Virus record (IMG/VR): IMGVR_UViG_2974628062_000001
Location: 44,794 to 108,793 of that record
From: a virus
Lineage: Duplodnaviria; Heunggongvirae; Uroviricota; Caudoviricetes
Strand: one strand, 5' to 3'
Length of the DNA stretch: 64,000 bases
Shown: positions 2,200 to 63,601 of the stretch, one piece after another
Layout of the letters: each line of letters opens with the position of its first letter
Numbering within the stretch: the stretch's first letter is position 1
Notes under the pieces: model-generated
The model's input: the letters and a program-made list of their open reading frames with translations, nothing else
Told to the model about the DNA's origin: nothing
The model's database searches: none
Program-made: the position numbers and the translations under genes

Positions 2200-2223
2200 C
2201 GGGGGAGCTTGCTCCCCAAGCTT
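2200..2223 (+). repeat. GC hairpin + AAGCTT intergenic motif
   Basis: ggggagc/gctcccc stem then AAGCTT. Confidence 0.6.
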
Positions 2224-2302
2224 GTACCGCACTACAAGACATGGTACAATGGTAGAAGCAGCCTCGGAGAAGGCTCAACTAATACTAGGAGATAAATAAA
2301 AC

Positions 2303-3019
2303 ATGGCACGAATTAAGGGACTTGCTTCCATTCAGGCAAACCAGAAGGCGCAGCAGGAGCGCGCTGAGGCTGGTAACCGACCTAAGGCGGACTGGTTTAA
2401 GTTCCCCAAGGGTCAGACCGCAATCGTCGTTCGATTCCTTCAGGAACTCGACCCCGAGATGCGTAATTACCGTGAGGACCGTGGAGTTGGCTTCATTGAG
2501 ACGGAGCACAATGCACCTGGTCCGGATGGCTGGAAGCGTCGCGGAATTTGCACCATCGCTGAAGAGGATGGTGGCGAGTGCTACGCATGTGAGCGTCACA
2601 AGCAGAATTACAAGGAGGGTTGGAGGCAGAAGCAGAACCTTTACATCAACGTCCTTGCCGACCTTGGCGATGGACCTAAGGTTTACATTCTGACTCGAAA
2701 CGCCAATTCTGTGTTCTCACAGAACCTCATTCAGGAAGCCCTTGATGAGGGAAGCATCACCGATGCAAATTACCGAATCACCAAGACTGGTGAGGGTACG
2801 ACTACTCAGTGGTCGCTGAAGCGTCTGAAGGATGAGCCTTTCGATGACAGCAAGGTTGAGGTCTTTGACCTTGAGGCTGCTGCGGTTCGTAAGGTAGAAT
2901 ATGACAAGCAGGCCGAATACTACGGTGCGGTTTACCAGGAGGACAATACTCCTGCGGCATCTAGCGGTGCTTCTCAGGCTCCACGTGCTTCCGCTTCATC
3001 TGCTGACGACGAGTGGTAA
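2303..3019 (+). CDS. single-stranded DNA-binding protein, T4 gp32-like
   Basis: AIVVRFLQ resembles gp32 AVIRFLP; H/C zinc cluster; acidic C-tail SSADDEW. Confidence 0.5.
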   Translation: MARIKGLASIQANQKAQQERAEAGNRPKADWFKFPKGQTAIVVRFLQELDPEMRNYREDRGVGFIETEHNAPGPDGWKRRGICTIAEEDGGECYACERHKQNYKEGWRQKQNLYINVLADLGDGPKVYILTRNANSVFSQNLIQEALDEGSITDANYRITKTGEGTTTQWSLKRLKDEPFDDSKVEVFDLEAAAVRKVEYDKQAEYYGAVYQEDNTPAASSGASQAPRASASSADDEW

Positions 3020-3036
3020 GATGACTTTGTAGAATG

Positions 3037-3067
3037 GCCCCAGATTGAAAAGTCTGGGGCCTTCTGC
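3037..3067 (+). terminator. intrinsic terminator
   Basis: 9-bp stem ggccccaga/tctggggcc then TTCTGCT. Confidence 0.6.
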
Positions 3068-3080
3068 TATAGTGAAGCTT

Positions 3081-3380
3081 ATGTCATTTGAATTCAGTAC
3101 GGAATACAAAACGTACATTAAGAGTCAAAGATGGAAGAGGGTCTGTACTAGATATTGGGCTGCCTACGGCCGGAAGTGTCAGGCATGTGGCAAGCGTAGA
3201 GACCTTCATGTACACCATCACACATATGTAAGGTTTGGTCGAGAGCTATTGACAGACCTTACAGGACTGTGCCATGATTGTCACAGACGAGTTCACCAAA
3301 GACATCGTGCAAATCGGCGGGTGTCGCTTGAACTGGTAACAAAGCAGTATGTAACCAATTATAAAGCTAAGAAGCTCTGA
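3081..3380 (+). CDS. HNH homing endonuclease
   Basis: HHHTYVRFG..CHDCHRRVHQ HNH motif; start uncertain (3045 or 3081). Confidence 0.7.
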   Translation: MSFEFSTEYKTYIKSQRWKRVCTRYWAAYGRKCQACGKRRDLHVHHHTYVRFGRELLTDLTGLCHDCHRRVHQRHRANRRVSLELVTKQYVTNYKAKKL

Positions 3381-3424
3381 TTCATAAGCCTTTAAGAATC
3401 AGAATACATTAAGGAGAAAAGGCT

Positions 3425-6400
3425 TTGGCATATACAGAACTACATCTTCATGATTACTACAGTACGCTGGATGGTCTGAATTCCCCGGCGGAATACATGG
3501 AGAGAGCTAAGGAACTGGGCATGACCCATCTTGCTCAGACCAATCACGGAAGTCTCATTGGGCACCGTGAATTTCAGAAGGCTGCATCTGCGGCGGGTAT
3601 CGTTCCCATTCTTGGTGTTGAGGCTTATATCTCACCTACCGACCGTTTTGACCGTCGTGCCAAGAACAAGCGTTCTGATGGAACGAACGTATATAACCAC
3701 CTCATCATTCTTGCTCAGGGTGAGACAGGTCTTAAGACTCTCAATACTCTGAATGAGATTGCTTGGACTGAGGGTTTCTACAACAAGCCTCGTATTGATA
3801 TGGAGGTTCTGGAGGAGCACAATGAGGGCTTGATTGTTCTTTCAGGATGTCTGAACTCGATGCTCTGTAAGGCTCTCGATGCGGGCAATTACGATGAGGC
3901 AGAGCGTATTGCTCTTGAGTTCAAGCGCATTCTCGGAGACCGATTCTACATTGAGGTTCAGGGACATAACCCTCTCGAAATCAATCAGGGTCTATTCAAG
4001 ATTGCTGACGACAATGGAATTCCGCCTGTCGTGACTTCCGACTGTCATTATGCCCGAAAGGAAGACCTCTGGATTGAAGAGGCTATGCTGATTATCTCTT
4101 CTAAGCCTAAGTTCGGTAAGGAGTTTGATTTCAGTAAGTCTCAGAAGATGGACCTCCTTGAGCGATACAACTATCTTTATCCAGACCGTATGATGTCTTT
4201 TGAGGAGATTGAGATTTATCTCCACTCCGCTGAAGAGCACCGTGCGGCATTTAAGAAGCAGGGATTCGACCGAGAGGATATCGTAAAGAACACTGAGGTA
4301 ATTTCTCAGCGTATTGGCGACTACCCTTTCCATCAGGGACTTGACCTTCTGCCACGCCCGAAGAATGGCAATCCCGATGACCTTCTGGAGAAGAAGGCTC
4401 GTGCTGGACTTCGTAACCGTGGACTGGACAAGAATCCGGAATATGTTGCGCGACTGGAAGAAGAGCTGGAGATTATCAAGTCTAAGGACTTCTCTACATA
4501 CTTCCTCATTGTTGCCAATATGATTAAGTGGGCAAAGGACCAGGGTATTTTTGTTGGTCCTGGTCGTGGTTCTGGCGCGGGTTCTTTGGTTAACTATTCG
4601 CTTGGAATCACTGAGGTAGACCCTATCAAGTATGGTCTGCTGTTCTTCCGATTCATCAATCCAGAGCGAAATGACTTCCCTGACATCGATACAGACTTTG
4701 AAGACCGTAGGCGAAACGAAATCAAGGATTACCTGACGCGTAAGTTCCACCACGTGGCATCTATTGCGACTGTTGGTTACTTCAAGAACAAGGGTGTTAT
4801 CCGTCGTGTCGCTGGTCTGTTCCGTATTGACCAGAAGGAAACTGACAAGGCTCTTGAGACTATTGAGACCTTTGAGGAATATCAGACATCTTCTGCAACT
4901 GAAGAGTACCGCAAGAAGTACCCTGAGGTTGAGATGGTTGCCAAGGAATTGCGTGGGCGCATCAGTAATACTGGTATGCACGCGGCTGGTATCGTTATTT
5001 CCAAGGAGCCTATCGCAAAGTATGCGGCCATGGAGACTGCTGCTGACCCTAAGGACAAGACAGCTCCCCGTAGGTCTCTTGTTGCGATGGACATGGAAGA
5101 GGCCGCTGACCTTGGTCTGATTAAGGTTGACGCCCTTGGACTCAAGACTCTCTCTGTGATTGGTGACGCACTAAAGGTTATCAAGGAGAGGCATAACCGA
5201 GACATCATCTTGACCGATATTCCTCTTGAGGATAAGAAGGTCTATGAGATGATTTCCAAGGGTTACACGAAGGGTGTCTTCCAGTGTGAAGCAACTCCGT
5301 ATACTGGTCTGATTCTCAACATGGGCGGTATCCATTCATTCGCTGAACTTGCGGCTTCCAATGCGCTTGTTCGTCCGGGTGCAATGAATACCATTGGTGC
5401 GGAGTACATCGCGCGAAAGAATGGCGAAACTCCTGTCACCTATGTGCATGAATTGATGAGGTCTTTCACCGAAGACACATATGGTGAAGTTCTTTATCAG
5501 GAGCAGGTCATGCTTGCGATGACTGAATTGGCCGGGATGTCTATGGCAACGGCTGATAAGGTCCGTAAGATTATTGGTAAGAAGAAGGATGCCAGTGAAT
5601 TCGATGCCTATAAGGCAGAGTTTATCAATGGCGCTTCTCAGCACATTTCAAAGTCTGTGGCTGAAAAGCTATGGCATGACTTTGAGGCGCACGCTGGCTA
5701 CTCCTTCAACAAGTCTCACGCTGTTGCATATTCCATGCTCTCTTACTGGACTGCATGGTTGAAGTACTACTATCCTGTCGAGTTCGTTTATGCTATGCTG
5801 AAGAACGAGAGTGATAAGGACGCGCGAACCACCTACCTGATTGAGGCGAAGCGAATGGGAGTGAAGGTCAAGTTGCCTCACATCAACCACTCGCAGCTTG
5901 ACTTCAGTATTGAAGGGGACGCTATTCGATTTGGTCTGGCCAACATCAAGTTCATTTCCGACAACCTTGGAAAGAAGTTGATTGAGGCTCGTCCTTTCGA
6001 GAATTATGCGGCTCTGGAAGAAGAGGTCAAGAAGCCAAAGAACGGCCTTAGTGTCCGAGTACTTCAGTCGCTTAATGCAATTGGTGGTGCGACATTCCCG
6101 GATAACCCGAAGCGTGGAGATGAGCGACACTACTTCTACGAATACCTTCAGATTCCCGCATTCGAAATTCCTGACATGCCCGCTGGAGTTCGTGCACAGT
6201 TCACTGACCTGTGCGACTTCCATGAGTCTGGTAACCATGTCGTGATGGGAATGGTTAAGGAGGTCAAGCGAGGAAAGGGATGGTCTCGAATTGAGATTGT
6301 CGATGAAACTGGCGAGGCTTCCTTCTTCCATAAGGAAGACACACTGATTCAGCCTGGTAATATGTATGTGATGCTCATCGCCAACAAGCGATTGGCTCGG

Positions 6401-6715: not shown

Positions 6716-6722
6716 TATGCCT

Positions 6723-6745
6723 GCCCCTTCGGGGGCGGCAAGCTT
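6723..6745 (+). repeat. GC hairpin + AAGCTT intergenic motif
   Basis: gcccc-ttcg-ggggc then AAGCTT, 6 nt before RBS. Confidence 0.6.
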
Positions 6746-12057: not shown

Positions 12058-12075
12058 GGGCTTCGGCCCAAGCTA
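12058..12075 (+). repeat. GC hairpin + AAGCTA variant motif
   Basis: gggc-ttcg-gccc then AAGCTA then GGAGG. Confidence 0.5.
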
Positions 12076-20613: not shown

Positions 20614-20775
20614 CAAAGTCAAGTGCGACGGTACTTGACGGGAGTGGCGGAACGCCTTACTATGGAGGTAACGCACATCGGGGCCTAACCAGCCGGTTGA
20701 TAACCAAACTGATGGTCTAGACTAACGGAGTACATAGAGGTCTAGTGCCGGAAAACTTAATCCGGTCTCCCACAT

Positions 20776-20846
20776 ATCTGCTTGGTGTAATGGTAGCACA
20801 AGAGATTCCAAACCTCTTAGCGTGGGTTCGATTCCTACAGCAGGTG
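20776..20846 (+). tRNA. tRNA-Trp(CCA)
   Basis: acceptor atctgct/agcaggt; anticodon loop ttccaaa; T-loop TTCGATT. Confidence 0.6.
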
Positions 20847-20876: not shown

Positions 20877-20971
20877 GGTATACAAGTTGAAGGCTCTGTT
20901 CTTCAAGCTTCGCCCGGTGGTTGATAAGCTACTGAGCAGATGGTACACTAGAAGAACAAAGTAAGAAACAA

Positions 20972-21050
20972 GCTTTCGGGTCGGATGTAAACGGTTATCT
21001 TTCAATTTGGTGAATACAATATCCCGTTTACAACAACACATCCGAATCAT
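20972..21050 (+). ncRNA. Y RNA-like repeat element copy A (short form), abutting tRNA-Ile
   Basis: AAGCTT then CGGGTCGGATGTAAACGGTTATC; tcggatgt pairs acatccga and aaacgg pairs ccgttt around an 8-nt bulge. Confidence 0.5.
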
Positions 21051-21125
21051 TGGGGTATAGCTCGGTCTGGTTAGAGCAATCGTCTGATAAGCGATAGGTC
21101 GTGGGTTCGAATCCCACTGCCCCAA
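21051..21125 (+). tRNA. tRNA-Ile(GAU)
   Basis: acceptor tggggta/tgcccca; anticodon stem atcgt/gcgat, loop ctgataa. Confidence 0.8.
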
Positions 21126-21129
21126 CTGT

Positions 21130-21262
21130 GTGGGTCGAATGTTATCGATTATCTTCCAAACAGCGGGTTATAGGTTCGAATCCTATCCACGGCTTTCATG
21201 TCGTGGTAGCTCAATGGGTAGAGCAGCAGTCCTAAAAATACGATAGCAACAACATATCCACC
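21130..21262 (+). ncRNA. Y RNA-like element copy E (full form: 5' GGGTCGAATGTTATC, T-arm mimic, D-arm mimic, 3' CAACATATCC)
   Basis: atgttatcg pairs cgata[gcaaca]acat; internal gggttatagGTTCGAATCctatcc and tagctcaatgggtagagc. Confidence 0.5.
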
Positions 21263-21264
21263 AA

Positions 21265-21417
21265 GCTTGCGGGTCGGAGACATTCGGTTATCTTTGATTC
21301 CAATAATATCAGAATTCCGGTTCGACTCCGGATTGCGAATGAATAGGGGTAGGCCCAGCTAGCTCTGAAATGTTAGTGAATTCGCACCTTCCGATGTCAT
21401 ATATATCCGCATATAAT
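21265..21417 (+). ncRNA. Y RNA-like element copy B (full form), abutting tRNA-Ser
   Basis: AAGCTT then CGGGTCGGAGACATTCGGTTATC; cattcg pairs cgaatg; T-arm mimic ttccggTTCGACtccgga; 3' atatatccgc. Confidence 0.5.
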
Positions 21418-23190: not shown

Positions 23191-23212
23191 GCCGGGTTTA
23201 CCCGGCAAGCTT
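23191..23212 (+). repeat. GC hairpin + AAGCTT intergenic motif
   Basis: gccggg-ttta-cccggc then AAGCTT. Confidence 0.6.
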
Positions 23213-24873: not shown

Positions 24874-24881
24874 CCAAAGAA

Positions 24882-24909
24882 CCCCGCCGAATGGGCGGGG
24901 TTCAAGCTT
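24882..24909 (+). repeat. GC hairpin + AAGCTT intergenic motif
   Basis: ccccgcc-gaatg-ggcgggg, TTC, AAGCTT. Confidence 0.6.
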
Positions 24910-28205: not shown

Positions 28206-28421
28206 TTTAGGGATGTCTCATGATGAGCGACGCTATTGACAAGGCAGTTGAAGCATGGCATACTTCAGGTGATGAAGAGACCCGCTCACTGCAAGAGTAT
28301 CTGGACATGAATGATGCTGAATTCCAGGTGTGGGTGGTTACAGGCAGGATGACTGAATCCTACCTTGACAGGCATCCAGAGATGATGTAAGATATAAGAA
28401 CAAGGCGTCGAGAGACGCTAT

Positions 28422-28494
28422 GGCTCGGTGGTGAAATCGGTTATCACGTTTCCCTCATAAGGAAGTATTTCGGGTTCGAGTCCCGGCTGAGCTA
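28422..28494 (+). tRNA. tRNA-Met(CAU) (elongator or Ile2-type)
   Basis: acceptor ggctcgg/ctgagct; 3-bp D stem with long D loop; anticodon loop ctcataa. Confidence 0.65.
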
Positions 28495-29368: not shown

Positions 29369-29380
29369 CGCCCGAAAGGG
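29369..29380 (+). other. GC tetraloop hairpin 4 nt upstream of tRNA-Tyr
   Basis: gccc-gaaa-gggc. Confidence 0.5.
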
Positions 29381-29384
29381 CAAT

Positions 29385-30811: not shown

Positions 30812-30826
30812 CAAGATAGGAAGAAA

Positions 30827-31006
30827 ATGAAAGTATCAAATCTCTACATCTACGGTTCCAGTGAGTTCCTTCGTAGACTAGAAGAAGAGTACGTATTCCT
30901 GGGAAGGTCTGTTAGACTTGAAGAGGACCGACTTATCGTCTTCGCACTTCCGCGAAGGAAGAAGAACACCAAGAAGTCTCCCAAGGGCAAGTCACGCAGG
31001 CGTTGA
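30827..31006 (+). CDS. hypothetical small basic protein
   Basis: 59 aa; RBS AGGAAG; basic C-tail. Confidence 0.35.
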   Translation: MKVSNLYIYGSSEFLRRLEEEYVFLGRSVRLEEDRLIVFALPRRKKNTKKSPKGKSRRR

Positions 31007-31585
31007 CAAAGCCGGACGGGGTTTGATAGACTTCTATTGGTCAGCACGAAAGAGTTGACCAAGCTTGTACTGAACAACCATACGGCGTAAGCCCGGCAAG
31101 GCGTCACGGCCAAACCGGCAGACCAAAATTTCCTGGCCAAGGGTGGTTGACTCGGTATTGACAGTTCGCACGTGACTCTGATACTGTCAAGTTGTAGCAC
31201 ACGGACAAGGCTTAGGCGGATGAAACAAGCCGGTGGGATGCGAGTGGTGATGCTACAATAAACGGGAAGTAAGCCATCTATACCTACGACACTGCTTCCT
31301 AAGTTGTCACCCATAAGGTCATAAACCGTGAGGGAAACCACAGCGGATAATCTTTCCCAGCTAGGTATAGACGTGGGGACCTGAGGGTGATAAGCTTCTA
31401 CAGCAGGCAGGTCGAACGCCTTAGACAAGTATTCAGGGCACTGAACAAGCACGTAACACCCATTCGACAGGGTACAAAGTTACCGCCTGATTGAATACAT
31501 GCTGTAGGCTGTGAGGGTAACCGGAAATGCTCTCACAAGCTTCCTTTGTAAGCTTCAAATATTGCCAATCAAACAAAGGATTACC

Positions 31586-32497: not shown

Positions 32498-32504
32498 GTC
32501 ACAG

Positions 32505-32527
32505 CGGGGGTAAAACCCCGCAAGCTT
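32505..32527 (+). repeat. GC hairpin + AAGCTT intergenic motif
   Basis: cggggg-taaaa-ccccg, C, AAGCTT. Confidence 0.6.
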
Positions 32528-33742: not shown

Positions 33743-33754
33743 GCCCTTCGGGGC
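33743..33754 (+). other. GC tetraloop hairpin 3 nt upstream of tRNA-Leu
   Basis: gccc-ttcg-gggc. Confidence 0.5.
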
Positions 33755-33757
33755 AAT

Positions 33758-34467: not shown

Positions 34468-34479
34468 GCCCGAAAGGGC
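34468..34479 (+). other. GC tetraloop hairpin 2 nt upstream of tRNA-Ser
   Basis: gccc-gaaa-gggc. Confidence 0.5.
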
Positions 34480-34481
34480 AT

Positions 34482-36644: not shown

Positions 36645-36678
36645 AGCTGGGGAGGCGGAAACAAATCCCCAGCAAGCT
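36645..36678 (+). repeat. GC hairpin + AAGCTT intergenic motif
   Basis: gctgggga...tccccagc then AAGCTT. Confidence 0.6.
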
Positions 36679-36697
36679 TGTCTAACAAAGGAATAAA

Positions 36698-38049: not shown

Positions 38050-38073
38050 GGCGGAGGAAACTCCGCCAAGCTT
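38050..38073 (+). repeat. GC hairpin + AAGCTT intergenic motif
   Basis: ggcggag-gaaa-ctccgcc then AAGCTT. Confidence 0.6.
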
Positions 38074-39032: not shown

Positions 39033-39052
39033 GCGGCTTCGGCCGCAAGCTT
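39033..39052 (+). repeat. GC hairpin + AAGCTT motif fused to promoter -35
   Basis: gcggc-ttcg-gccgc then AAGCTTGACA. Confidence 0.6.
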
Positions 39053-39382: not shown

Positions 39383-39390
39383 TAAAATCT

Positions 39391-39410
39391 GGAGCTTCGG
39401 CTCCAAGCTT
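39391..39410 (+). repeat. GC hairpin + AAGCTT intergenic motif
   Basis: ggagc-ttcg-gctcc then AAGCTT then AGGAGG. Confidence 0.6.
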
Positions 39411-39977: not shown

Positions 39978-39989
39978 GCCCTTCGGGGC
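39978..39989 (+). other. GC tetraloop hairpin 3 nt upstream of tRNA-Val
   Basis: gccc-ttcg-gggc. Confidence 0.5.
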
Positions 39990-39992
39990 TAT

Positions 39993-40607: not shown

Positions 40608-40631
40608 GGCCCCGGAAACGGGGCCAAGCTT
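40608..40631 (+). repeat. GC hairpin + AAGCTT intergenic motif
   Basis: ggccccg-gaaa-cggggcc then AAGCTT. Confidence 0.6.
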
Positions 40632-41990: not shown

Positions 41991-42012
41991 GGGGAGGAAA
42001 CTCCCCAAGCTT
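41991..42012 (+). repeat. GC hairpin + AAGCTT intergenic motif
   Basis: ggggag-gaaa-ctcccc then AAGCTT. Confidence 0.6.
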
Positions 42013-43973: not shown

Positions 43974-43993
43974 GCCCCTTCGGGGGCAAGCTT
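43974..43993 (+). repeat. GC hairpin + AAGCTT intergenic motif
   Basis: gcccc-ttcg-ggggc then AAGCTT. Confidence 0.6.
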
Positions 43994-44021: not shown

Positions 44022-44951
44022 ATGAGTTTCCCTTTCAGCATCTTCCGCTTCTCCGAGTCCGATGAGGTTAACCTTACCGCCTTCGTGGACGGACAGATGT
44101 ATTCTGCTACGGATTCGCACCCGAATTACGAGCGAATTAAGGAGCTGTGCGAGGCGGGGGACGAGAGTGTTGTTGAACTCTTTGACCTTTCCTTCACTGC
44201 ACAGAGGCGTTTCGAGCGCCTTTCTGAGCGAGTGAGCATTACTTCCGGCCGGATTTACTTTGATGGCGAAGAGGTTGATAACGCTCTTACTCAGCAGGTT
44301 GTTCGATTCATCAATGAGGGTGTAGAGGACTTTAAGCCTCTCGTTCTGTTCTTTGAGAAGGTGCAGACGAACCCGAATTCACATTCTCAGGAGCAGCTTT
44401 ACCGCTGGCTCAAGGACCGTGCTTTCACGATTAACCAGGACGGCAACATTGTTGCTTACAAGGGTGTGAAGAAGGTCACGGCTGACCATCAGTACGAGAG
44501 TATTTCTCACGGTACTGCTATGGTTGATGGTGTTGAGCACACGGGTGGTATTCCTAACCCGCTCGGTGCAGTTGTTGAGATGCCTCGTTCTGAGGTTCAG
44601 CACAACCCGGCGGTTGGCTGTCACACTGGTCTGCACGCTGGTACGTGGAATTACGCGTCCGGGTTTGCTCAGGGTGCGGTTCTGACCGTTGAGATTAACC
44701 CGCGCGATGTGGTTTCGGTTCCGACCGATTGCCAGGACCAGAAGATGCGCGTTTGCCGTTACACTGTGACTGGAGTCACTGAGCAGGAGCTTGGCAGTTA
44801 TGTAACTGACGAGTATGATGAGGACGAAGAGGTTGAGGACGTTGAGCTTCCGGAGGAGACTCCGGAGCCCGTGAAGTATCAGCAGGTTGGTTGGCTGACT
44901 TCTGTGCCTTACCCTTACGATGATGATGAGGAAGAGGACGACGTTTTCTGA
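44022..44951 (+). CDS. hypothetical protein, acidic C-terminus
   Basis: RBS AAGGAG; 309 aa. Confidence 0.5.
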   Translation: MSFPFSIFRFSESDEVNLTAFVDGQMYSATDSHPNYERIKELCEAGDESVVELFDLSFTAQRRFERLSERVSITSGRIYFDGEEVDNALTQQVVRFINEGVEDFKPLVLFFEKVQTNPNSHSQEQLYRWLKDRAFTINQDGNIVAYKGVKKVTADHQYESISHGTAMVDGVEHTGGIPNPLGAVVEMPRSEVQHNPAVGCHTGLHAGTWNYASGFAQGAVLTVEINPRDVVSVPTDCQDQKMRVCRYTVTGVTEQELGSYVTDEYDEDEEVEDVELPEETPEPVKYQQVGWLTSVPYPYDDDEEEDDVF

Positions 44952-44958: not shown

Positions 44959-44978
44959 GCCCCTTCGGGGGCAAGCTT
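44959..44978 (+). repeat. GC hairpin + AAGCTT intergenic motif
   Basis: gcccc-ttcg-ggggc then AAGCTT. Confidence 0.6.
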
Positions 44979-45182: not shown

Positions 45183-45202
45183 GGCCCGAAAGGGCCAAGC
45201 TT
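45183..45202 (+). repeat. GC hairpin + AAGCTT intergenic motif
   Basis: ggccc-gaaa-gggcc then AAGCTT then AGGAGG. Confidence 0.6.
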
Positions 45203-46680: not shown

Positions 46681-46698
46681 GCGTTGATATTCGTAAAA

Positions 46699-46737
46699 AG
46701 ACCGGGGTTGACAAGGCCCCGGTCTTTTGCGTATACT
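46699..46737 (+). promoter_or_regulatory. terminator hairpin overlapping a sigma-70-like promoter for tRNA-Lys
   Basis: agaccgggg...ccccggtct then TTTT; TTGACA (in loop) -18- TATACT. Confidence 0.55.
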
Positions 46738-48101: not shown

Positions 48102-48117
48102 AGGCGGGTTTTCCCGC
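48102..48117 (+). terminator. hairpin ahead of tRNA
   Basis: ggcggg-tttt-cccgcc. Confidence 0.35.
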
Positions 48118-48122
48118 CATAC

Positions 48123-48960: not shown

Positions 48961-49130
48961 CGAGACGCTAGAAGCTGTGTATAGTAGTAGATGCGAGTGG
49001 GAGAGAGACCCACAAACTTTTCCGGCGGGGTGAGGATGAAAATCTGTAGAAACACCGGATGCGAGCGGAGCGCACAATCTCCGCATTAAGCTTTTGAACG
49101 ATTATGTAGTAGAATAGTTACGGAAGGGAG

Positions 49131-49880: not shown

Positions 49881-49892
49881 GGCCTTCGGGCC
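49881..49892 (+). other. GC tetraloop hairpin 4 nt upstream of tRNA-Glu
   Basis: ggcc-ttcg-ggcc. Confidence 0.5.
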
Positions 49893-49896
49893 ACAT

Positions 49897-51571: not shown

Positions 51572-51600
51572 TTCTGACCCTTTCGTAAAGGGTCTTTCCC
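51572..51600 (+). terminator. hairpin with recurrent CGU tri-loop stem gacccttt/aaagggtc
   Basis: gaccctttcgtaaagggtc then TTTCCCC. Confidence 0.45.
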
Positions 51601-52195: not shown

Positions 52196-52217
52196 GGGGA
52201 CTTCGGTCCCCAAGCTT
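52196..52217 (+). repeat. GC hairpin + AAGCTT intergenic motif
   Basis: ggggac-ttcg-gtcccc then AAGCTT. Confidence 0.6.
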
Positions 52218-52555: not shown

Positions 52556-52575
52556 GCCCGGATTCGGGCAAGCTT
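52556..52575 (+). repeat. GC hairpin + AAGCTT intergenic motif
   Basis: gcccg-gatt-cgggc then AAGCTT. Confidence 0.6.
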
Positions 52576-53413: not shown

Positions 53414-53441
53414 GGACCCTTTCGTAAAGGGGTCCAAGCTA
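53414..53441 (+). repeat. GC hairpin + AAGCTA variant, A of AAGCTA shared with the start codon
   Basis: ggaccctttcgtaaaggggtcc then AAGCTATG. Confidence 0.55.
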
Positions 53442-54474: not shown

Positions 54475-54501
54475 GCGGGTTCGTAAAGGACCCGCAAGCT
54501 T
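54475..54501 (+). repeat. GC hairpin + AAGCTT intergenic motif
   Basis: gcgggt-tcgtaaagg-acccgc then AAGCTT. Confidence 0.6.
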
Positions 54502-55999: not shown

Positions 56000-56036
56000 G
56001 GGAGGGGTTGACAACTTCTCCCAAGCTCGTTAAACT
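56000..56036 (+). promoter_or_regulatory. hairpin + AAGCTC variant overlapping sigma-70-like promoter
   Basis: gggag...ctccc; TTGACA-17-TAAACT. Confidence 0.45.
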
Positions 56037-56298: not shown

Positions 56299-56326
56299 GA
56301 GACCTTTCGTAAAGGGTCTCAAGCTT
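56299..56326 (+). repeat. GC hairpin + AAGCTT intergenic motif
   Basis: gagacctttcgtaaagggtctc then AAGCTT. Confidence 0.6.
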
Positions 56327-57012: not shown

Positions 57013-57032
57013 GGCCCGAAAGGGCCAAGCTT
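57013..57032 (+). repeat. GC hairpin + AAGCTT intergenic motif
   Basis: ggccc-gaaa-gggcc then AAGCTT. Confidence 0.6.
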
Positions 57033-57057: not shown

Positions 57058-57732
57058 ATGATTACCGAGCGTACCGCTGCAATCATCTCGGCTTACACTG
57101 GCATTACCTTTGGTGATTTCGGCAACACTCGTGATTACATTGAAGAACTGATGGAGAAGGACCCGCGAGTCAATCCCTTTGGCAATGATGATTCTGTTGC
57201 CAATGCTTCAAAGCCCGACTTTGTTGCTATCAAGGTTGACGACAATGACCCTACGGCTATGACGGAGCGAGAGGCTGCAATTGTTACAGCTTTCACCGGA
57301 ATTGCCCTTGGTAATTTTGGTGCAGCACAGCTTTACATGGAGGAGGTCATGGGTCACCCGATTTGGACTCACGAGTTGGGCTCCCCGCTCATCTGGAAGG
57401 CTATTAAGGAAAAGTCTCGACCTGACTTTATTGCTCTGAGCGAGAATGTTGGCAAGGAGTCTGTGAAGCCTGCCAATTATGTCAAGACTACCCTTGACAA
57501 GGTTAGCGAGAATCTGCCGGGTCTTCCTGATGAGCTGCTTGACCTTTACACTCTGCTTGCCATGGTTAAGGGTAAGGATGTTACTCTTAAGGACGTGCAC
57601 GATGCTTGGGCGGTTTGGAAGAATCGCATTCGTGCAGACCACAAGTCGCTCGTTCCCTTTGAGGCTCTTGAATTCCACGTCCAGGAGCTTGACCGTAAGT
57701 ATGCTGAGGGAATTGCAAAGGCTGCTGAGTAA
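57058..57732 (+). CDS. hypothetical protein with internal tandem duplication
   Basis: RBS AAGGAG; repeated TAAIISAYTGITFGDFG / EAAIVTAFTGIALGNFG. Confidence 0.5.
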   Translation: MITERTAAIISAYTGITFGDFGNTRDYIEELMEKDPRVNPFGNDDSVANASKPDFVAIKVDDNDPTAMTEREAAIVTAFTGIALGNFGAAQLYMEEVMGHPIWTHELGSPLIWKAIKEKSRPDFIALSENVGKESVKPANYVKTTLDKVSENLPGLPDELLDLYTLLAMVKGKDVTLKDVHDAWAVWKNRIRADHKSLVPFEALEFHVQELDRKYAEGIAKAAE

Positions 57733-57738
57733 GCAGTT

Positions 57739-57760
57739 GCCGGGTAAAACCGGCAAGCTT
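57739..57760 (+). repeat. GC hairpin + AAGCTT motif followed by a second hairpin
   Basis: gccggg-taaaa-ccggc then AAGCTT then ccctttcgtaaagg. Confidence 0.6.
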
Positions 57761-57787
57761 TTTGACCCTTTCGTAAAGGAGCATTTA

Positions 57788-57979
57788 ATGTACAAATACG
57801 AAATTACCGTGATGGAATCTGAGCGGGGTTGGGGAAGAAATTCCTGGGAAGAGGAATTCGATACTCCTGAAGAAGCTCAGAAGCGTATTGATGAAATCAA
57901 TAGCCGCAATAAGCCTGGACCTGCACCTGATTACTACATGCAGGCATATGACGAGATTCGAGCAATCCTTAAGGATTAA
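57788..57979 (+). CDS. hypothetical protein
   Basis: RBS AAAGGAG; 63 aa. Confidence 0.4.
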   Translation: MYKYEITVMESERGWGRNSWEEEFDTPEEAQKRIDEINSRNKPGPAPDYYMQAYDEIRAILKD

Positions 57980-59449: not shown

Positions 59450-59469
59450 GCCCCGAAAGGGGCAAGCTT
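59450..59469 (+). repeat. GC hairpin + AAGCTT intergenic motif
   Basis: gcccc-gaaa-ggggc then AAGCTT. Confidence 0.6.
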
Positions 59470-59810: not shown

Positions 59811-59867
59811 GCGGGGTTCGTAAAGAGCCTCGCAAGCTTGACAATCCATTAGAAGGGTTGGTATTCT
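59811..59867 (+). promoter_or_regulatory. hairpin + AAGCTT fused to sigma-70-like promoter (leaderless ORF follows)
   Basis: AAGCTTGACA-18-TATTCT; ATG 7 nt after -10. Confidence 0.45.
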
Positions 59868-60663: not shown

Positions 60664-60691
60664 GCCCCGGTCCGTATGACGGGGCAAGCTT
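60664..60691 (+). repeat. GC hairpin + AAGCTT intergenic motif
   Basis: gccccgg...ggggc then AAGCTT. Confidence 0.55.
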
Positions 60692-60752: not shown

Positions 60753-60781
60753 TTGACTTCCGTCCCTCGCTCCCGTAGTGT
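60753..60781 (+). promoter_or_regulatory. sigma-70-like promoter
   Basis: TTGACT-17-TAGTGT. Confidence 0.45.
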
Positions 60782-60818
60782 TTGACCCATCGAAGCAACG
60801 CCCCAGAAAAATCGGGGG

Positions 60819-60847
60819 TTGACAGAGAGAAGCAAGACAGCTAGAGT
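60819..60847 (+). promoter_or_regulatory. sigma-70-like promoter
   Basis: TTGACA-17-TAGAGT. Confidence 0.5.
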
Positions 60848-60881
60848 TCTACTAACGGAAACGACACAGGAGGAAACGGTC

Positions 60882-61244: not shown

Positions 61245-61245
61245 C

Positions 61246-61274
61246 TTGACATCCATCCCTTCAACCCATAGTAT
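61246..61274 (+). promoter_or_regulatory. sigma-70-like promoter
   Basis: TTGACA-17-TAGTAT. Confidence 0.5.
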
Positions 61275-61304
61275 CTAGCTAATCGAAACAGAAGGAGTAA
61301 GAAG

Positions 61305-61889
61305 ATGGCTACCGAGCGTGAGTGGCTGGTTTCTCAGGGTCTTGCCAATCCGGGTCGTGGGCGGTACTCTAAGGATGCCCGTGCGGCACTTGACAAGGCT
61401 AAGGCGGGTGGTATGAAGTTTGACCTTACCCCTGCTGAAAAGGCTAAGCTGGAGCGTGCCAATAAGCCTAAGAAGGAAAAGAAGGCTTCTGTCCAGACTC
61501 CTAAGGAGGTTCGTCCGTCTCAGGAATCGTATGACGCTAAGGCCGTTCGGGCTTGGGGTGAGCAGACTGGTGCCATTGAGAAGGGTAAGCGTGGTAAGCT
61601 GCCTACGGCTCTTATCAATGCCTACCTTGCGGCGAACAAGACTCAGAAGGCTGTGACTGTGCGCCGTGCGCCTGCTACTAAGCGTGCGGTTGTGCGAAAG
61701 GAAAGCGTTGGGTATACTTTCATTCGGCGCGGACCGAAGGACCCTGCTTACATCTCTGAGCCTCTTGTGGCAGTCTCTAGCTGTGGCGGATGCTCTCGTG
61801 GTGTGGCATACTGCGGTTGCAAGAGTGGTCCGACTGCCCCTAAGTACCTTGGTGGAGAAGTTCTGATGTTGACTCGTCCGTCCAAGTAG
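61305..61889 (+). CDS. lsr2: Lsr2-like nucleoid-associated DNA-binding protein
   Basis: VRAWGEQTGAIEKGKRGKLPTALINAYLAA matches Lsr2 C-domain IREWAR..RGRIPADVIDAY. Confidence 0.55.
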   Translation: MATEREWLVSQGLANPGRGRYSKDARAALDKAKAGGMKFDLTPAEKAKLERANKPKKEKKASVQTPKEVRPSQESYDAKAVRAWGEQTGAIEKGKRGKLPTALINAYLAANKTQKAVTVRRAPATKRAVVRKESVGYTFIRRGPKDPAYISEPLVAVSSCGGCSRGVAYCGCKSGPTAPKYLGGEVLMLTRPSK

Positions 61890-61942
61890 GCTACAGTAGT
61901 CGGTGTGGGGGAGGAAAAACCTCCCCCACCTAAGGAGATAAA

Positions 61943-62260
61943 ATGTACGGAGACAATAACCGCATGGACCCGACTGGCGTTCGCCTTTCGAATTCTGCTC
62001 ACCTCTCTGACCGCATGTATCGCACCATCATGAATAAGCTTTCGGAGTCCCTTTACCGCCGGGATTTCGATGTGAACATTTTCGCTCGCAACATGATGGC
62101 TCATGGCAATCCTCTGCTTCGTGACCGTATGATGCAACTCGCACTTGCGTTCATCGATGCTGGTGCGGAAATGTACGACTCGTGCATGATTGAGGATGGT
62201 ACAGTACAGGCTAAGCGACTCAAGGAAACTGCGGACCTTTACCAGATGCCTCGGGGTTGA
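61943..62260 (+). CDS. hypothetical protein
   Basis: RBS AAGGAG. Confidence 0.45.
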   Translation: MYGDNNRMDPTGVRLSNSAHLSDRMYRTIMNKLSESLYRRDFDVNIFARNMMAHGNPLLRDRMMQLALAFIDAGAEMYDSCMIEDGTVQAKRLKETADLYQMPRG

Positions 62261-62285
62261 CAGACCCCCTCAACCCTGATAGTCT
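62257..62285 (+). promoter_or_regulatory. sigma-70-like promoter
   Basis: TTGACA-17-TAGTCT. Confidence 0.5.
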
Positions 62286-62323
62286 TCAGACACCAAGCCA
62301 GACAAAACTAGGAGTAAACAAAG

Positions 62324-63337
62324 ATGGACGCTGTTGAGAAGTACAAGAACATGGCTGCTTTCGCTTCTCTTCGTCGGAATGCGTGGTGGGACCTTGAGGG
62401 TGCTCACACTTTCGACAAGCCTGTGACCACTTCCGAAATGCTCGACCTTGCTCACCTTTCCAACTGGAATCTCCGCATGGAAGTTCTTGACACGGGTGAG
62501 TATTGTGACAGGGTTGAGTACAAGGTTCTTCGTGACAATCCCTTCATGGGTCGTGTTGAGCGACTGGGAATTGTTGGAACTCGGTATAAGCTGTTCTCGA
62601 ATGAGGAACTGTTCGCCTTTGGTGACAACCTCACCAATCAGCGGCGACGTTGGGAAACGGCAGGAAGTCTTTTCGGTGGTCGCACGGTTTTTGCTACCCT
62701 TGCTGACACTGAGGACATTGTTCTTGACCCCAAGGGTGCGGGTGACCGTATCAAGAAGTATCTGATGCTCACCACTTCTCACGATGGTTCGGGTAAGATT
62801 GTCGCCAAGAAGGTGAATACCCGAGTCGAATGTGCCAACACCCTGAACATGGCAATGCGGGAGAATGGCGCGGAATTCAGTATTCGTCACACTCAGAAGT
62901 TGGAAGGTCGTCTTGCAGAGGCTAAGCTTGCGCTTGGCTTTGCTGATGACTATGACGCTGAGTTCGAAGAGGCAATGAAGGTTCTTTACGCTAAGGACAT
63001 GACGCTTTCGCAGTTTGAGCGAATTGTTCTTGCGGAATTCCCTGAGCCGGATGCCGAAAAGAAGGGCGCTGTTACTCGGTGGGAAAACAAGGTTGACGAC
63101 ATCAAGAGTGTTTGGCGGGGTTCTTCTCGTTCCATGGACAACCTTCCGAACAATGCTTACAAGGGACTTCAGGTTCTCAGTGAGCACAACCAGTGGTTCC
63201 GTGGAATTCGAAAGGATTCCGAGACGGAAACTCCGAATGTTGAGAACTTCCTGGCAGCGGGGATGGGTTTCGATAAGCCCACCAATGATTTCCGTAACCG
63301 GGTCTTCGGTCGCATGATGGAGTTCGCTACTTCTTAA
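62324..63337 (+). CDS. hypothetical protein
   Basis: 337 aa; RBS AGGAG. Confidence 0.5.
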   Translation: MDAVEKYKNMAAFASLRRNAWWDLEGAHTFDKPVTTSEMLDLAHLSNWNLRMEVLDTGEYCDRVEYKVLRDNPFMGRVERLGIVGTRYKLFSNEELFAFGDNLTNQRRRWETAGSLFGGRTVFATLADTEDIVLDPKGAGDRIKKYLMLTTSHDGSGKIVAKKVNTRVECANTLNMAMRENGAEFSIRHTQKLEGRLAEAKLALGFADDYDAEFEEAMKVLYAKDMTLSQFERIVLAEFPEPDAEKKGAVTRWENKVDDIKSVWRGSSRSMDNLPNNAYKGLQVLSEHNQWFRGIRKDSETETPNVENFLAAGMGFDKPTNDFRNRVFGRMMEFATS

Positions 63338-63343
63338 GTAGCA

Positions 63344-63375
63344 GAGGGGGAGTCGAAAGACTCCCCCTCAAGCTT
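63344..63375 (+). repeat. GC hairpin + AAGCTT intergenic motif
   Basis: gagggggagtc-gaaa-gactccccctc then AAGCTT. Confidence 0.6.
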
Positions 63376-63391
63376 TTCCTAAGGAGGGAAT

Positions 63392-63574
63392 ATGAAGGAA
63401 TTTTGGTGGTCTGTAATTGGTTCTGCTGCAATTGGCGGGATTATTACAGGGGTCGCTAATAGCAATCAGTTCAATCAACACTGGAATTTCCTCATTGTGT
63501 GGGGGATACTCTTTGTGGTATATTGGATTCTGAGAGCAACAAAGGGCGATGCTGACTGGGACTTTGATTGGTGA
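63392..63574 (+). CDS. hypothetical small membrane protein
   Basis: RBS AAGGAGGG. Confidence 0.4.
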   Translation: MKEFWWSVIGSAAIGGIITGVANSNQFNQHWNFLIVWGILFVVYWILRATKGDADWDFDW

Positions 63575-63581
63575 AAGTCCG

Positions 63582-63601
63582 GGGGGTTCGCCCCCAAGCT
63601 T
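63582..63601 (+). repeat. GC hairpin + AAGCTT intergenic motif
   Basis: ggggg-ttcg-ccccc then AAGCTT then AGGAGG. Confidence 0.6.

Follow-up and report, generated by a model that had tools for sequence, protein, structure and literature searches.

Why does the same short sequence, AAGCTT, recur directly behind GC-rich hairpins between the genes of a Streptomyces phage, and what might it do there? The window analyzed here is a stretch of 64,000 nucleotides (record positions 44794-108793) from the 130,473-bp genome of Streptomyces phage Blueeyedbeauty. We found that a small, very stable RNA hairpin with a directly adjoining, fixed AAGCU separates about 70 early and middle genes of this large phage. 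Our analysis confirmed that this combination is real, and we found no account of a hairpin-AAGCU signal in the literature on this phage group.

Anatomy of the element

A preliminary description had listed 25 perfect copies and three variants in the window. All 25 are present, each with the hairpin ending 0 to 1 nt before AAGCTT, as are the variants (AAGCTA at 12070 and 53436, AAGCTC at 56023), and three further copies were found at 31039-31066, 31511-31542, and 49065-49093, the last of them separated from its hairpin by 3 nt. The window contains 43 AAGCTT sites, whereas dinucleotide shuffles gave 20.4 ± 4.1 and never as many as 43. The density contrast reported earlier also held (3 copies in 0-20 kb versus about 23 in 36-64 kb) and stems from the tightly overlapping replication genes of the first region, which leave few spacers. 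The copies are as follows, in window coordinates, with the motif position in parentheses.

2202..2223, +, GGGGAGcttgCTCCCC hairpin, AAGCTT (2218), after primase gene
6721..6745, +, CTGCCCCttcgGGGGCGG hairpin, gap c, AAGCTT (6740), after DNA polymerase gene
12058..12075, +, GGGCttcgGCCC hairpin, variant AAGCTA (12070)
23191..23212, +, GCCGGGtttaCCCGGC hairpin, AAGCTT (23207), before Ro-like gene
24879..24909, +, 10-bp hairpin, AAGCTT (24904), after Ro-like gene
31039..31066, +, hairpin, AAGCTT, in 770-nt noncoding stretch after tmRNA gene
31511..31555, +, hairpin, AAGCTT, second AAGCTT 7 nt on, before band-7 gene
32504..32527, +, GCGGGGgtaaaaCCCCGC hairpin, AAGCTT (32522)
36646..36679, +, 8-bp hairpin, AAGCTT (36674)
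38050..38073, +, GGCGGAGgaaaCTCCGCC hairpin, AAGCTT (38068)
39033..39052, +, GCGGCttcgGCCGC hairpin, AAGCTT (39047), fused to -35 box TTGACA, tRNA-Leu promoter
39391..39410, +, GGAGCttcgGCTCC hairpin, AAGCTT (39405)
40608..40631, +, GGCCCCGgaaaCGGGGCC hairpin, AAGCTT (40626)
41991..42012, +, GGGGAGgaaaCTCCCC hairpin, AAGCTT (42007), before rIIA; orthologues in five relatives with different stems
43974..43993, +, GCCCCttcgGGGGC hairpin, AAGCTT (43988), between rIIA and rIIB; orthologues with different stems
44959..44978, +, GCCCCttcgGGGGC hairpin, AAGCTT (44973), after rIIB
45183..45202, +, GGCCCgaaaGGGCC hairpin, AAGCTT (45197), SD sequence directly 3'
49065..49093, +, GCGGAG..CTCCGC hairpin, 3-nt gap, AAGCTT
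52196..52217, +, GGGGACttcgGTCCCC hairpin, AAGCTT (52212)
52556..52575, +, GCCCGgattCGGGC hairpin, AAGCTT (52570)
53414..53441, +, GGACCCTTTcgtaAAGGGGTCC hairpin, variant AAGCTA (53436)
54475..54501, +, GCGGGTTCgtaaaGGACCCGC hairpin, AAGCTT (54496)
56000..56028, +, 10-bp hairpin with TTGACA across loop, AAGCTC (56023), motif in spacer of TTGACA-17-TAAACT promoter
56299..56326, +, GAGACCTTTcgtaAAGGGTCTC hairpin, AAGCTT (56321), before RNA ligase gene
57013..57032, +, GGCCCgaaaGGGCC hairpin, AAGCTT (57027)
57739..57760, +, GCCGGgtaaaaCCGGC hairpin, AAGCTT (57755), 6 nt past gene 202 stop, inside annotated 5' part of gene 203
59450..59469, +, GCCCCgaaaGGGGC hairpin, AAGCTT (59464)
59811..59839, +, 9-bp hairpin, AAGCTT (59834), fused to -35 TTGACA, then 18 nt, TATTCT
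60664..60691, +, GCCCCG..CGGGGC hairpin, AAGCTT (60686), next gene 190 nt away
63344..63375, +, 11-bp GAAA hairpin, AAGCTT (63370)
63582..63601, +, GGGGGttcgCCCCC hairpin, AAGCTT (63596)

The order of parts is stereotyped: stop codon, about 6 nt, a stem of 5 to 11 bp, C-AAGCU(U), 9 to 50 nt, and the next start codon. Across the whole genome, GC-rich hairpins adjoin AAGCT without a gap in 62 cases and with a gap of at most 3 nt in 71, and 44 of these 71 carry tetraloops (GAAA in 15, UUCG in 12, mostly with C-G closing pairs), the usual loop being C(UUCG)G or C(GAAA)G. A1, A2, G3, C4, and U5 are invariant across about 100 copies and orthologues, and no one-mismatch variant of AAGCU was seen after comparable hairpins. 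The preliminary description had regarded AAGCTT as fixed, which is true of the AAGCU core but not of the sixth base (T in 55 of the 71 copies, G in 7, A in 6, and C in 3), and the conserved unit is C-AAGCU. The distance from stop codon to hairpin has a mode of 6 nt and is 4 to 8 nt for most copies, while the next start follows AAGCT at anything from 8 to more than 1,000 nt; the motif, first placed 5 to 20 nt upstream of ribosome-binding sites, is thus locked to the hairpin and the upstream stop codon and not to the ribosome-binding site. By this fixed spacing the element belongs to the upstream gene, and the motif persists even if the next gene has a promoter of its own or sits hundreds of nucleotides away.

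The genome holds 98 copies of AAGCTT, of which 64 fall within the 15.5 kb of intergenic DNA (12% of the genome), where CAAGCT and AAGCTT are the commonest hexamers and the ribosome-binding site ranks below them. Exact AAGCTT follows 25 of about 513 perfect GC-rich hairpins on the plus strand of the genome, and no 6-mer stands out after hairpins of the minus strand. The elements are restricted to the early and middle regions, with almost none in the late structural operon; canonical hairpins with a U-tract are in use as terminators in the late region.

Conservation, orientation, and avoidance in genes

Orthologous spacers from Annadreamy, Comrade, two metagenome contigs, and one phage with 65% rIIB identity gave the related-phage comparison that had been proposed as a check: 30 of 34 keep a hairpin adjoining AAGCT (AAGCTT in 26, AAGCTG in 2, AAGCTA in 2), with a different stem or loop in 25. 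This pattern suggests that selection acts on the structure and the motif. The element is present in one lineage, comprising Annadreamyvirus, Gilsonvirus, Faustvirus, and close metagenome relatives; the related 133-kb phages (Cursive, L010-L015) and Arthrobacter phage Racecar lack it.

The proposed check for strand and position bias likewise returned intergenic enrichment of AAGCTT and an orientation that follows transcription. Every copy among plus-strand genes reads from hairpin to AAGCT, and in the sole spacer of the minus-strand block (genome 4883-4973) hairpin and AAGCTT lie in that order on the minus strand, as they do, with covarying stems, in the orthologues of Comrade and TunaTartare. 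Within open reading frames of the element region, we counted 61 sense AAGCT where 90.4 were expected (z -4.7) and 12 sense AAGCTT where 32 were (z -4.3), while the reverse-complement 5-mer AGCTT occurs 93 times against 102.6 expected. The SD-like GAGGAG is likewise depleted in open reading frames.

tRNA genes and Y-like RNAs

Eight tRNA genes have the same kind of hairpin, but without AAGCT, 2 to 4 nt upstream. These comprise all five noted earlier and three more (tRNA genes at 28422, 48123, and 51597). AAGCTT had also been described in front of two Y-like RNAs, and it does lie at the 5' edge of both (20970 and 21263).

28404..28421, +, hairpin without AAGCT, 3 nt before tRNA-Met
29370..29384, +, GCCCgaaaGGGC hairpin and aat, adjoining tRNA-Tyr
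33743..33757, +, GCCCttcgGGGC hairpin and aat, before tRNA-Leu
34468..34481, +, GCCCgaaaGGGC hairpin and at, before tRNA-Ser
39978..39992, +, GCCCttcgGGGC hairpin and tat, before tRNA-Val
48103..48122, +, GGCGGGttttCCCGCC hairpin and atac, before tRNA-Ile
49881..49896, +, GGCCttcgGGCC hairpin and acat, before tRNA-Glu
51576..51596, +, GACCCTTTcgtAAAGGGTC hairpin and tt, before tRNA-Gln
20970..20975, +, AAGCTT without hairpin, 5' edge of Y-like RNA A (20976-21050), promoter upstream at 20921
21263..21268, +, AAGCTT between closing stem of tRNA-like/Y-like RNA (21127-21262) and Y-like RNA B (21269-21417)

RNase P cutting at the tRNA 5' end would leave the hairpin with 2 to 4 nt, matching a hairpin followed by AAG. 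At the second Y-like site, AAGCUU fills the exact interval from the closing stem of one tRNA-like/Y-like RNA to the first base of the RNA that follows, and this junction with its AAGCUU is conserved in four relatives (Annadreamy, Sham, Faust, and Gilson).

A candidate 3'-end processing signal

Our results lead us to favor, tentatively, the view that the element is RNA-level punctuation at the 3' end of the upstream cistron, combining a protective hairpin with an endonuclease site, most likely for host RNase E. The anatomy, conservation, strandedness, avoidance in open reading frames, and need for read-through are established here, and from them we infer cleavage, its position, and the enzyme. 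The earlier suggestion of an RNA processing or termination punctuation signal is accordingly upheld in its processing and 3'-end sense by the RNA-type loops, covarying stems, orientation, avoidance in open reading frames, substitution at tRNA genes, and stable-RNA junctions.

In this proposal, host RNA polymerase would make long early and middle transcripts, in which a very stable GC stem starting about 6 nt past the stop codon would lie just outside the reach of the terminating ribosome, as estimated from published ribosome helicase geometry, and would stay folded. The single-stranded C-AAGCU(U) directly 3' would be the endonuclease site, cut most likely at AAG↓CUU, leaving the upstream mRNA with a hairpin and 3 nt, a tail probably too short for a 3' exonuclease to grip, and freeing the downstream mRNA with a leader of about 20 nt bearing its ribosome-binding site. 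Polycistronic RNA could thereby be divided into units of individually set stability. Where a tRNA gene follows, RNase P would make the cut and AAGCU is absent, and between adjacent stable RNAs, such as the Y-like RNAs, AAGCUU would play the same role. The 5'-monophosphate left by such a cut could destabilize rather than help the downstream product, which counts against this scheme.

Host RNase E is the likeliest nuclease because AAG↓CUU fits the actinobacterial cleavage preference RR↓CNU (PMC10641625, PMC6448022), and a homologue of the enzyme exists in Streptomyces (PMC4681348). Against RNase E, the motif is far stricter than RR↓CNU, with the invariant +2 U, first A, and -1 C unaccounted for, and GCUU is on average only about 35 to 45% unpaired when folded in silico. 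The main alternative nuclease is a dedicated phage enzyme.

Alternative explanations

A phage-encoded factor that recognizes the helix and CAAGCU, be it a sequence-specific endoribonuclease with RegB-like logic, an RNA-binding regulator, or an antiterminator, might act at about 70 sites to decide what becomes of early and middle transcripts. We consider this unlikely, although all RNA-level evidence for the host-processing scheme fits it equally. The five invariant core bases are far stricter than any RNase E preference, and the restriction to early and middle regions and to one lineage favors it as well; absence from the sister 133-kb group and Racecar means that the element is no general actinophage solution, as merely using a universal host enzyme might predict. 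However, we found no candidate protein, RNase H being the sole RNA endonuclease in the annotation, and the fixed pentamer could simply be the optimal site of a host enzyme.

It is rather doubtful that the copies are U-tract-less intrinsic terminators or attenuators ("I-shaped," or like those of the phiC31 early region), each boundary leaking a fraction of transcription and AAGCUU standing in for the U-tract. In favor, the GC-rich hairpins sit just past stop codons, phiC31 reportedly has U-tract-less terminators, and the roughly 11 copies combined with promoters resemble terminator-promoter cassettes; at 39047 and 59834 the fusion of AAGCTTGACA to a -35 box was as described before, in both cases 18 nt ahead of a -10 element. 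Moreover, Streptomyces Term-seq found many structured 3' ends without a U-tract (PMC8269248; PMC8914203). However, 60 of the 71 copies have no sigma-70-like promoter nearby, and 42 of these 60, including those before rIIA and rIIB, lie at most 35 nt from the next start, so that the downstream genes need read-through. With no room for a downstream promoter at most copies and no U-tract after the hairpins, which had already been judged not to be classic intrinsic terminators, they are not efficient terminators, and an actinobacterial (mycobacterial) RNA polymerase needed a U-tract for termination in vitro (PMC3993855). Identical hairpins also stand 2 to 4 nt before tRNA genes that lack their own promoter, hairpin stability shows no difference between copies with and without a promoter, and termination gives no reason for a fixed non-U pentamer and leaves AAGCUU at the Y-like RNA junctions without a role.

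An improbable explanation, which may coexist with an RNA function, is that the elements are linkers for modular gene shuffling, like PeSL cassettes, with boundary microhomology inserting and deleting small genes. In the right arm, whose many small orphan genes they flank, the conserved stretch extends to AAGCTTCCCAAC..AAGGAG, the gene content of relatives differs at element boundaries, and PeSLs are GGGG..CCCC stem-loops of the same kind of region (PMC2839356). Yet six fixed bases beside a variable stem offer very little homology, and recombination leaves the strand-specific avoidance in open reading frames, the RNA tetraloops, the 6-nt stop spacing, and the tRNA substitution unexplained.

That the element helps translation initiation of the downstream gene, as an SAS-like or ribosome standby site, is very improbable. 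Most copies do have a start codon 8 to 30 nt downstream, served by a good SD, and the motif is absent where a tRNA rather than an open reading frame follows, but spacing to SD and start is variable while that to hairpin and stop is fixed, copies occur 190 to 1,378 nt from the next open reading frame and before tRNA and Y-like RNAs, and some lie upstream of promoters whose transcripts would exclude them. Inspection showed no complementarity between the motif and the 3' end of 16S rRNA. A DNA-level role, as a target of the phage C5-methylase, a stoperator-like regulator, a nicking or restriction enzyme, or a phage-promoter part, is just as hard to credit: AAGCTT is palindromic (a HindIII site) and every variant retains AGCT, the phage's gene set includes a DNA methylase and several HNH endonucleases, Cluster A stoperators are also oriented intergenic repeats (PMC3203893), and two copies overlap a -35 box, but the sixth base varies, the preceding C makes the unit asymmetric, the motif is strictly 3' of the hairpin relative to transcription, UUCG and GNRA loops point to RNA, open reading frames are depleted more strongly of sense AAGCT than of AGCTT, the motif is not followed by a positional -10 signal, an SD 0 to 10 nt downstream of many copies leaves no space for a start site, and restriction avoidance would deplete the site, as for GATC, and not enrich it.

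Comparison with known systems

The preliminary description had likened the element to the start-associated sequences (SAS) of actinophages, a reading that our results do not support: its anchors are the hairpin (0 nt) and the stop codon (mode 6 nt), its spacing to the start is variable, and the stems are free in sequence. In T7 early mRNA, host RNase III cuts between cistrons and the upstream message gains a protective 3' hairpin. As in Blueeyedbeauty, these are structured intercistronic RNAs in a long phage transcript with read-through needed downstream. The T7 sites, however, are irregular duplexes of about 20 bp, about 10 per genome, in which a double-strand-specific enzyme cuts the stem itself, whereas Blueeyedbeauty has stems of 5 to 11 bp, a fixed single-stranded pentamer outside the stem, and about 70 copies, and cleavage, demonstrated in T7, is what we infer here. 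T4 RegB cuts GGAG in early intergenic regions, within the SD, and inactivates translation; its targets are also short fixed RNA motifs between early genes, where processing would control the fate of early mRNA, but our motif lies upstream of the SD and adjoins a hairpin, and its nuclease is putative.

Actinobacterial RNase E sites (PMC10641625, PMC6448022) belong to the same host phylum, are single-stranded and intergenic or in 5' untranslated regions, and have a preference that AAG↓CUU fits, but they are degenerate, in contrast to five invariant positions tied to an adjoining helix. The SAS of Cluster K mycobacteriophages is a 13-bp sequence, GGGATAGGAGCCC, a few nucleotides from the start codon, and the ESAS adds upstream inverted repeats that are conserved in sequence (PMC3203893). 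They too are oriented intergenic repeats in the nonstructural arm of an actinophage, but SAS overlaps the SD and only 5 to 6 nt are fixed here, so the likeness is superficial.

PeSLs of the T4-type phages RB49 and phi1 (PMC2839356) are likewise GC-rich stem-loops between small early genes, some overlapping sigma-70-like promoters, as about 11 of our copies do, several with TTGACA in the loop. A strong promoter is defining for PeSLs, which have terminator activity and no fixed flanking pentamer, while 60 of our 71 copies lack a promoter. The "I-shaped" actinobacterial and phiC31 early terminators are also GC hairpins past stop codons without a U-tract, in Streptomyces and its phages, but what defines them is 3' ends or termination activity, their flanks are not conserved, and for most of our copies read-through is obligatory. 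Finally, REP elements and other 3' stabilizer hairpins (PMC3993855) are, like the Blueeyedbeauty element, intergenic hairpins that recur, presumed to stop 3' exonucleases and to give the parts of an operon differential stability, although REPs are chromosomal, conserved in sequence, and without a fixed cleavage motif coupled to them.

Anatomy and distribution of the element

The window matches Streptomyces phage Blueeyedbeauty (NC_048720.1; 130,473 bp; Stanwilliamsviridae, Loccivirinae, Annadreamyvirus) with 100% identity. This phage has S. griseus as its host, and window position 1 corresponds to record position 44794. The + strand carries every gene in the window, and the annotation places three regions there:

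Window 0-19 kb, + strand: replication genes
Window 19-35 kb, + strand: tRNA/tmRNA/Ro region
Window 35-64 kb, and on to 123 kb in the genome, + strand: many small early-type genes

Genome-wide counts of the element, a GC-rich hairpin that follows a stop codon and leads into C-AAGCU(U), were taken from the whole annotated 130,473-bp genome. The 25 perfect and 3 variant hairpin copies of the preliminary description were all confirmed in the window, together with a few additional ones, and its view that AAGCTT is far above chance was borne out, as the window has 43 occurrences where shuffles gave 20.4 ± 4.1. A strand bias is also evident, as exact AAGCTT follows 25 perfect GC-rich hairpins on the + strand while no outstanding hexamer follows the hairpins on the - strand. 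In the whole genome, 64 of 98 AAGCTT copies are intergenic, the intergenic share being 12% of the sequence, and the commonest intergenic hexamers are CAAGCT (67) and AAGCTT (64), with AAGGAG behind at 40.

AAGCT directly abuts the hairpin in 62 cases genome-wide and lies within 3 nt of it in 71. The preceding base is C in 57 of the 62 gap-free copies, and the sixth motif base, mostly T (55 of the 71), is otherwise G (7), A (6), or C (3). Hairpins of a similar kind in this phage and in three relatives were checked for one-mismatch variants of AAGCT, and none was seen. The stems are 5 to 11 bp long with folding energies of -7 to -24 kcal/mol, so that the GC-rich hairpin of an intrinsic terminator is present. 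Tetraloops occur in 44 of the 71 copies (GAAA in 15, UUCG in 12), closed mostly by a C-G pair; C(UUCG)G and C(GNRA)G are classical hyperstable RNA tetraloops. A longer stem, in which AAGUA at the stop codon would pair with GCUU, was considered and dropped, AAG being the last sense codon in 10 of 58 element genes versus 16 of 168 others.

The hairpin mostly starts 4 to 8 nt after the stop codon (mode, 6 nt), while the next feature follows AAGCT at anything from 8 to more than 1000 nt, commonly at 16 to 30 nt, and the fixed relation is thus from stop codon to hairpin to AAGCU, not from AAGCU to start codon. In partition-function folds with 70 nt on either side, the two A residues of the motif are about 73% unpaired and GCUU only about 35 to 45%. 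A search for positional signals 3' of AAGCT, including a fixed -10-like one, returned only C/G at +6 and, for the far right arm, a CCCAAC consensus that is weak, and the lack of a positional -10 signal led us to reject a promoter reading of the motif. Rfam searches of the window at gathering thresholds returned tRNAs and the tmRNA only.

There are 225 junctions between a CDS and the next + strand feature, 98 of which are shorter than 15 nt. Among the remaining 127, about 65 carry the hairpin with AAGCT, about 10 carry the same hairpin type 2 to 5 nt before a tRNA gene, and about 8 have a T-tract after the hairpin; most of these 8 belong to the late structural region (3' of the capsid, endolysin, and ribonucleotide reductase genes).

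Conservation in related phages

Orthologous spacers were found through the downstream protein, without regard to structure, in Annadreamy, Comrade, two metagenome contigs, and one phage with only 65% rIIB identity. Covariation was judged on these orthologues and not on paralogous copies, which had been chosen for pairing and would make the argument circular. A hairpin abutting AAGCT is kept in 30 of 34 distinct orthologous spacers (AAGCTT in 26, AAGCTG in 2, AAGCTA in 2), and in 25 the stem or loop differs from that of Blueeyedbeauty; before rIIA, for example, the stems across phages are GGGGAG/CTCCCC, GCGGG/CCCGC, GCGGGGA/TCCCCGC, and GGGGC/GCCCC. Pairing is kept through compensatory change in orthologues, as in a structured RNA under selection, and the stems of the tRNA-Thr spacer discussed below likewise covary in three phages.

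The element, or an analogous hairpin with a fixed k-mer, was absent from the more distant phage Cursive, six contigs of the 133-kb type, and Arthrobacter phage Racecar, and it is thus a lineage-specific invention.

Orientation and avoidance within coding sequences

The genome has one minus-strand gene block, with few spacers. In its tRNA-Thr/tRNA-Thr spacer, the transcribed minus strand reads GGCGGTTCC-loop-GGAACCGCC and then AAGCTT, and the same spacer in Comrade and TunaTartare has GTCGGTCCC/GGGACCGAC and GTCGGCATC/GATGCCGAC, again with AAGCTT next. Since this minus-strand spacer also reads hairpin and then AAGCTT, the orientation of the element follows transcription. The 19-nt loop of this hairpin (genome 4883-4973, outside the window; L016:4240-4290; L017:4175-4225), GUUUUUCUUCUCCUUUUUG, is identical in the three phages and includes an anti-SD-like CUCCUU.

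Expected counts within ORFs were obtained by shuffling synonymous codons in the coding sequences of the region that bears the element. Sense-strand AAGCT occurs 61 times versus 90.4 expected (z, -4.7) and AAGCTT 12 times versus 32 (z, -4.3), the latter ranking 29th in depletion among 3412 hexamers, alongside SD-like GAGGAG. The reverse complement AGCTT is not avoided within ORFs (93 versus 102.6 expected). Such a strand-specific pattern, with enrichment between genes and avoidance within them, is as expected of an active mRNA signal.

Neighboring loci

The annotated start of gene 203 (window 57578-57979) overlaps gene 202 by 155 nt, and a complete element lies within this overlap (gene 202 stop, 57730-57732; hairpin, 57739-57754; AAGCTT, 57755-57760), followed by AAGGAG and an in-frame ATG at 57788, which is probably the true start of gene 203.

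Between tRNA-Gln and tRNA-Trp (window 20619-20776), the manA RNA motif is matched below threshold, with 45.2 bits where the gathering score is 55.2 (E = 6e-10). At 20976-21417, upstream of the Ro-like gene, tRNA-like/Y-like RNAs alternate with tRNA-Ile and tRNA-Ser in an array, which matches YrlA weakly at 21163-21227 (34 bits; E = 4e-5). The closing stems of the array, GUGGGU/AUCCAC and GCGGGU/AUCCGC, were recovered in minimum-free-energy folds, with fold z-scores of only -1.7 to -2.3. The 770-nt stretch from the tmRNA to the band-7 gene (30813-31585), annotated as noncoding, contains a 59-codon unannotated ORF (30827-31006), two sigma-70-like promoters (31003 and 31158), and four AAGCTT copies (31061, 31392, 31537, and 31550); an Rfam search of the stretch gave no match, and it may encode further small RNAs.

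Outside the window, at the right end of the genome (124-130 kb), a different family of spacer hairpins of 10 to 14 bp has related, CCGGGCATTCTCTgaaaAGGGAATGTCCGG-like sequences and is not accompanied by AAGCT. GATC has zero copies in the whole 130,473-bp genome (GC about 48%), and GATC-containing pentamers are missing from the CDSs, where synonymous-codon shuffles predict about 40 to 65 of each; TCGAGG likewise occurs 0 times versus 31 expected in the CDSs of record 45.6-123 kb. In 41 kb of Arthrobacter phage Racecar, GATC occurs 218 times. The absence of GATC and TCGAGG looks like strong restriction avoidance.

Discussion

Our results make it highly probable that the element is an RNA-level mark of the 3' end of the upstream cistron. 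As to what happens at this mark, the explanation that we favor, while holding it tentatively, is that a protective hairpin is coupled to a site of endonuclease cleavage, for which RNase E is the foremost candidate. Two natural "substitutions," at tRNA ends and at a Y-like RNA junction, point to an endonucleolytic cut. Eight tRNA genes have a post-stop-codon hairpin of the element type 2 to 4 nt upstream without AAGCU, and RNase P cleavage at these genes would leave an upstream mRNA ending in the hairpin plus 2 to 4 nt, much as a cut at AAG|CUU would leave the hairpin plus 3 nt. In the tRNA-Trp/Ile/Ser region, the closing stem of one tRNA-like/Y-like RNA (21127-21262) is separated from the first base of the next (21269-21417) by exactly AAGCUU, an arrangement kept in Annadreamy, Sham, Faust, and Gilson. 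Endonucleases have to separate the stable RNAs of such an array, whose other junctions are tRNA ends.

Going by the published geometry of the ribosome, a hairpin that begins about 6 nt past the stop codon would lie just outside the helicase site when the stop codon occupies the A site, and would stay folded during translation of the upstream gene. The sequence AAG|CUU fits the actinobacterial RNase E rule RR|CNU, with U at +3 in 55 of 71 copies, and an RNase E homologue exists in Streptomyces (PMC4681348).

Against this, the folds do not predict GCUU to be unpaired throughout, and the motif tolerates much less variation than RR|CNU, so that a dedicated phage factor may also be considered. The helix with CAAGCU might then be the site of a phage-encoded, sequence-specific RNA endonuclease or RNA-binding switch, processing or gating about 70 gene boundaries and the Y-like RNA junctions, and would have arisen in the Loccivirinae lineage only. 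We consider this unlikely, if still the strongest competitor of the favored explanation; the lineage restriction itself does not discriminate between a nuclease of the host and one of the phage.

Next in order comes leaky, U-less termination, which we regard as doubtful. The hairpins would suit a terminator, yet the preliminary description was right that these are not classic intrinsic terminators, as the U-tract is absent and AAGCU(U) lies directly 3' of the stem. A scan of the + strand for hairpins with T-runs called none of the elements, and true hairpin plus T-tract sites are present elsewhere in the genome. Canonical terminators have a U-tract of 7 to 9 nt. Mycobacterial RNA polymerase requires a U-tract (PMC3993855), and the host's own motif-bearing 3' ends have T-rich tracts (PMC8914203). 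Moreover, a sigma-70-like promoter is lacking in the vicinity of 60 of the 71 copies, of which 42 lie within 35 nt of the next start, including the copies before rIIA and rIIB, so that the downstream genes have to be expressed by read-through. Judged from these sequence features, the elements are not efficient terminators. On the opposite strand, T-rich runs follow some element hairpins (minus strand of window 39389-39406 and of 48103-48118), a consequence of the A-rich sequence next to the stop codon on its 3' side, and such hairpins could terminate antisense transcription.

About 11 of the 71 copies are joined to a promoter, either with TTGACA in the loop and AAGCT in the spacer or with AAGCTTGACA as the junction. 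In these copies the downstream transcript starts after the motif, and the motif therefore cannot serve that transcript. A division into promoter-joined terminators and nonterminators was rejected, as folding energies do not differ with and without a promoter (P = 0.79). Many sigma-70-like promoters with TTGACA in the loop of a GC hairpin, such as ccggggTTGACAaggccccgg, were seen at window 46694-46737, 60805-60850, and 62243-62290 and at genome 109.5-116.7 kb.

Readings at the DNA level, in translation, or as a recombination linker each retain a small share of probability, and the RNA-type loops, transcription-linked orientation, and strand-specific avoidance in ORFs suggest an RNA and not a DNA operator.

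If the element is a processing signal, the early and middle expression of this phage would consist of long read-through transcripts cut at about 70 set points. An actinophage would here have a compact substitute for promoters and terminators, and synthetic operons in Streptomyces would gain a natural, portable "insulator" part (a hairpin plus 6 nt). The copies would then give Streptomyces RNase E its first strong set of in vivo substrates, or would reveal a new phage nuclease, and the sequence rules of actinobacterial RNase E could be tested directly on dozens of natural sites, among which the stem sequence alone varies. Gene boundaries are already marked more reliably by the element than by current start-codon calls, as for gene 203.

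Among known systems, the start-associated sequences (SAS and ESAS) of Cluster K mycobacteriophages, to which the preliminary description had likened the element, are start-codon-anchored 13-mers that overlap the SD sequence, with repeats conserved in sequence (PMC3203893). This likeness did not hold, since the fixed part here is only C-AAGCU(U), with the next feature 8 to more than 1000 nt away, nor did it extend to the 17-bp consensus repeats of ESAS, as the element stems differ among copies and orthologues. Stoperators and other repressor-bound DNA operators conserve at least 12 bp, whereas the element conserves 5 to 6 bp. The promoter-early stem-loop (PeSL) cassettes of T4-type phages (PMC2839356) are resembled by the roughly 11 promoter-joined copies, and the element shares with PeSLs a stem-loop in the spacer between small early genes, but only 11 of 71 copies have a strong sigma-70-like promoter joined to the stem-loop; the TTGACA-in-loop promoters look like terminator-promoter or insulator-promoter composites similar to PeSLs. 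The proposed phage factor would be an actinophage counterpart of T4 RegB, with a different chemistry and a different target. We found no description of the element in the literature searched on the phage, its cluster or family, or conserved intergenic motifs. Intercistronic hairpins, RNase E sites, and PeSL-like cassettes are known ideas, and the element joins these in a new and highly regular form.
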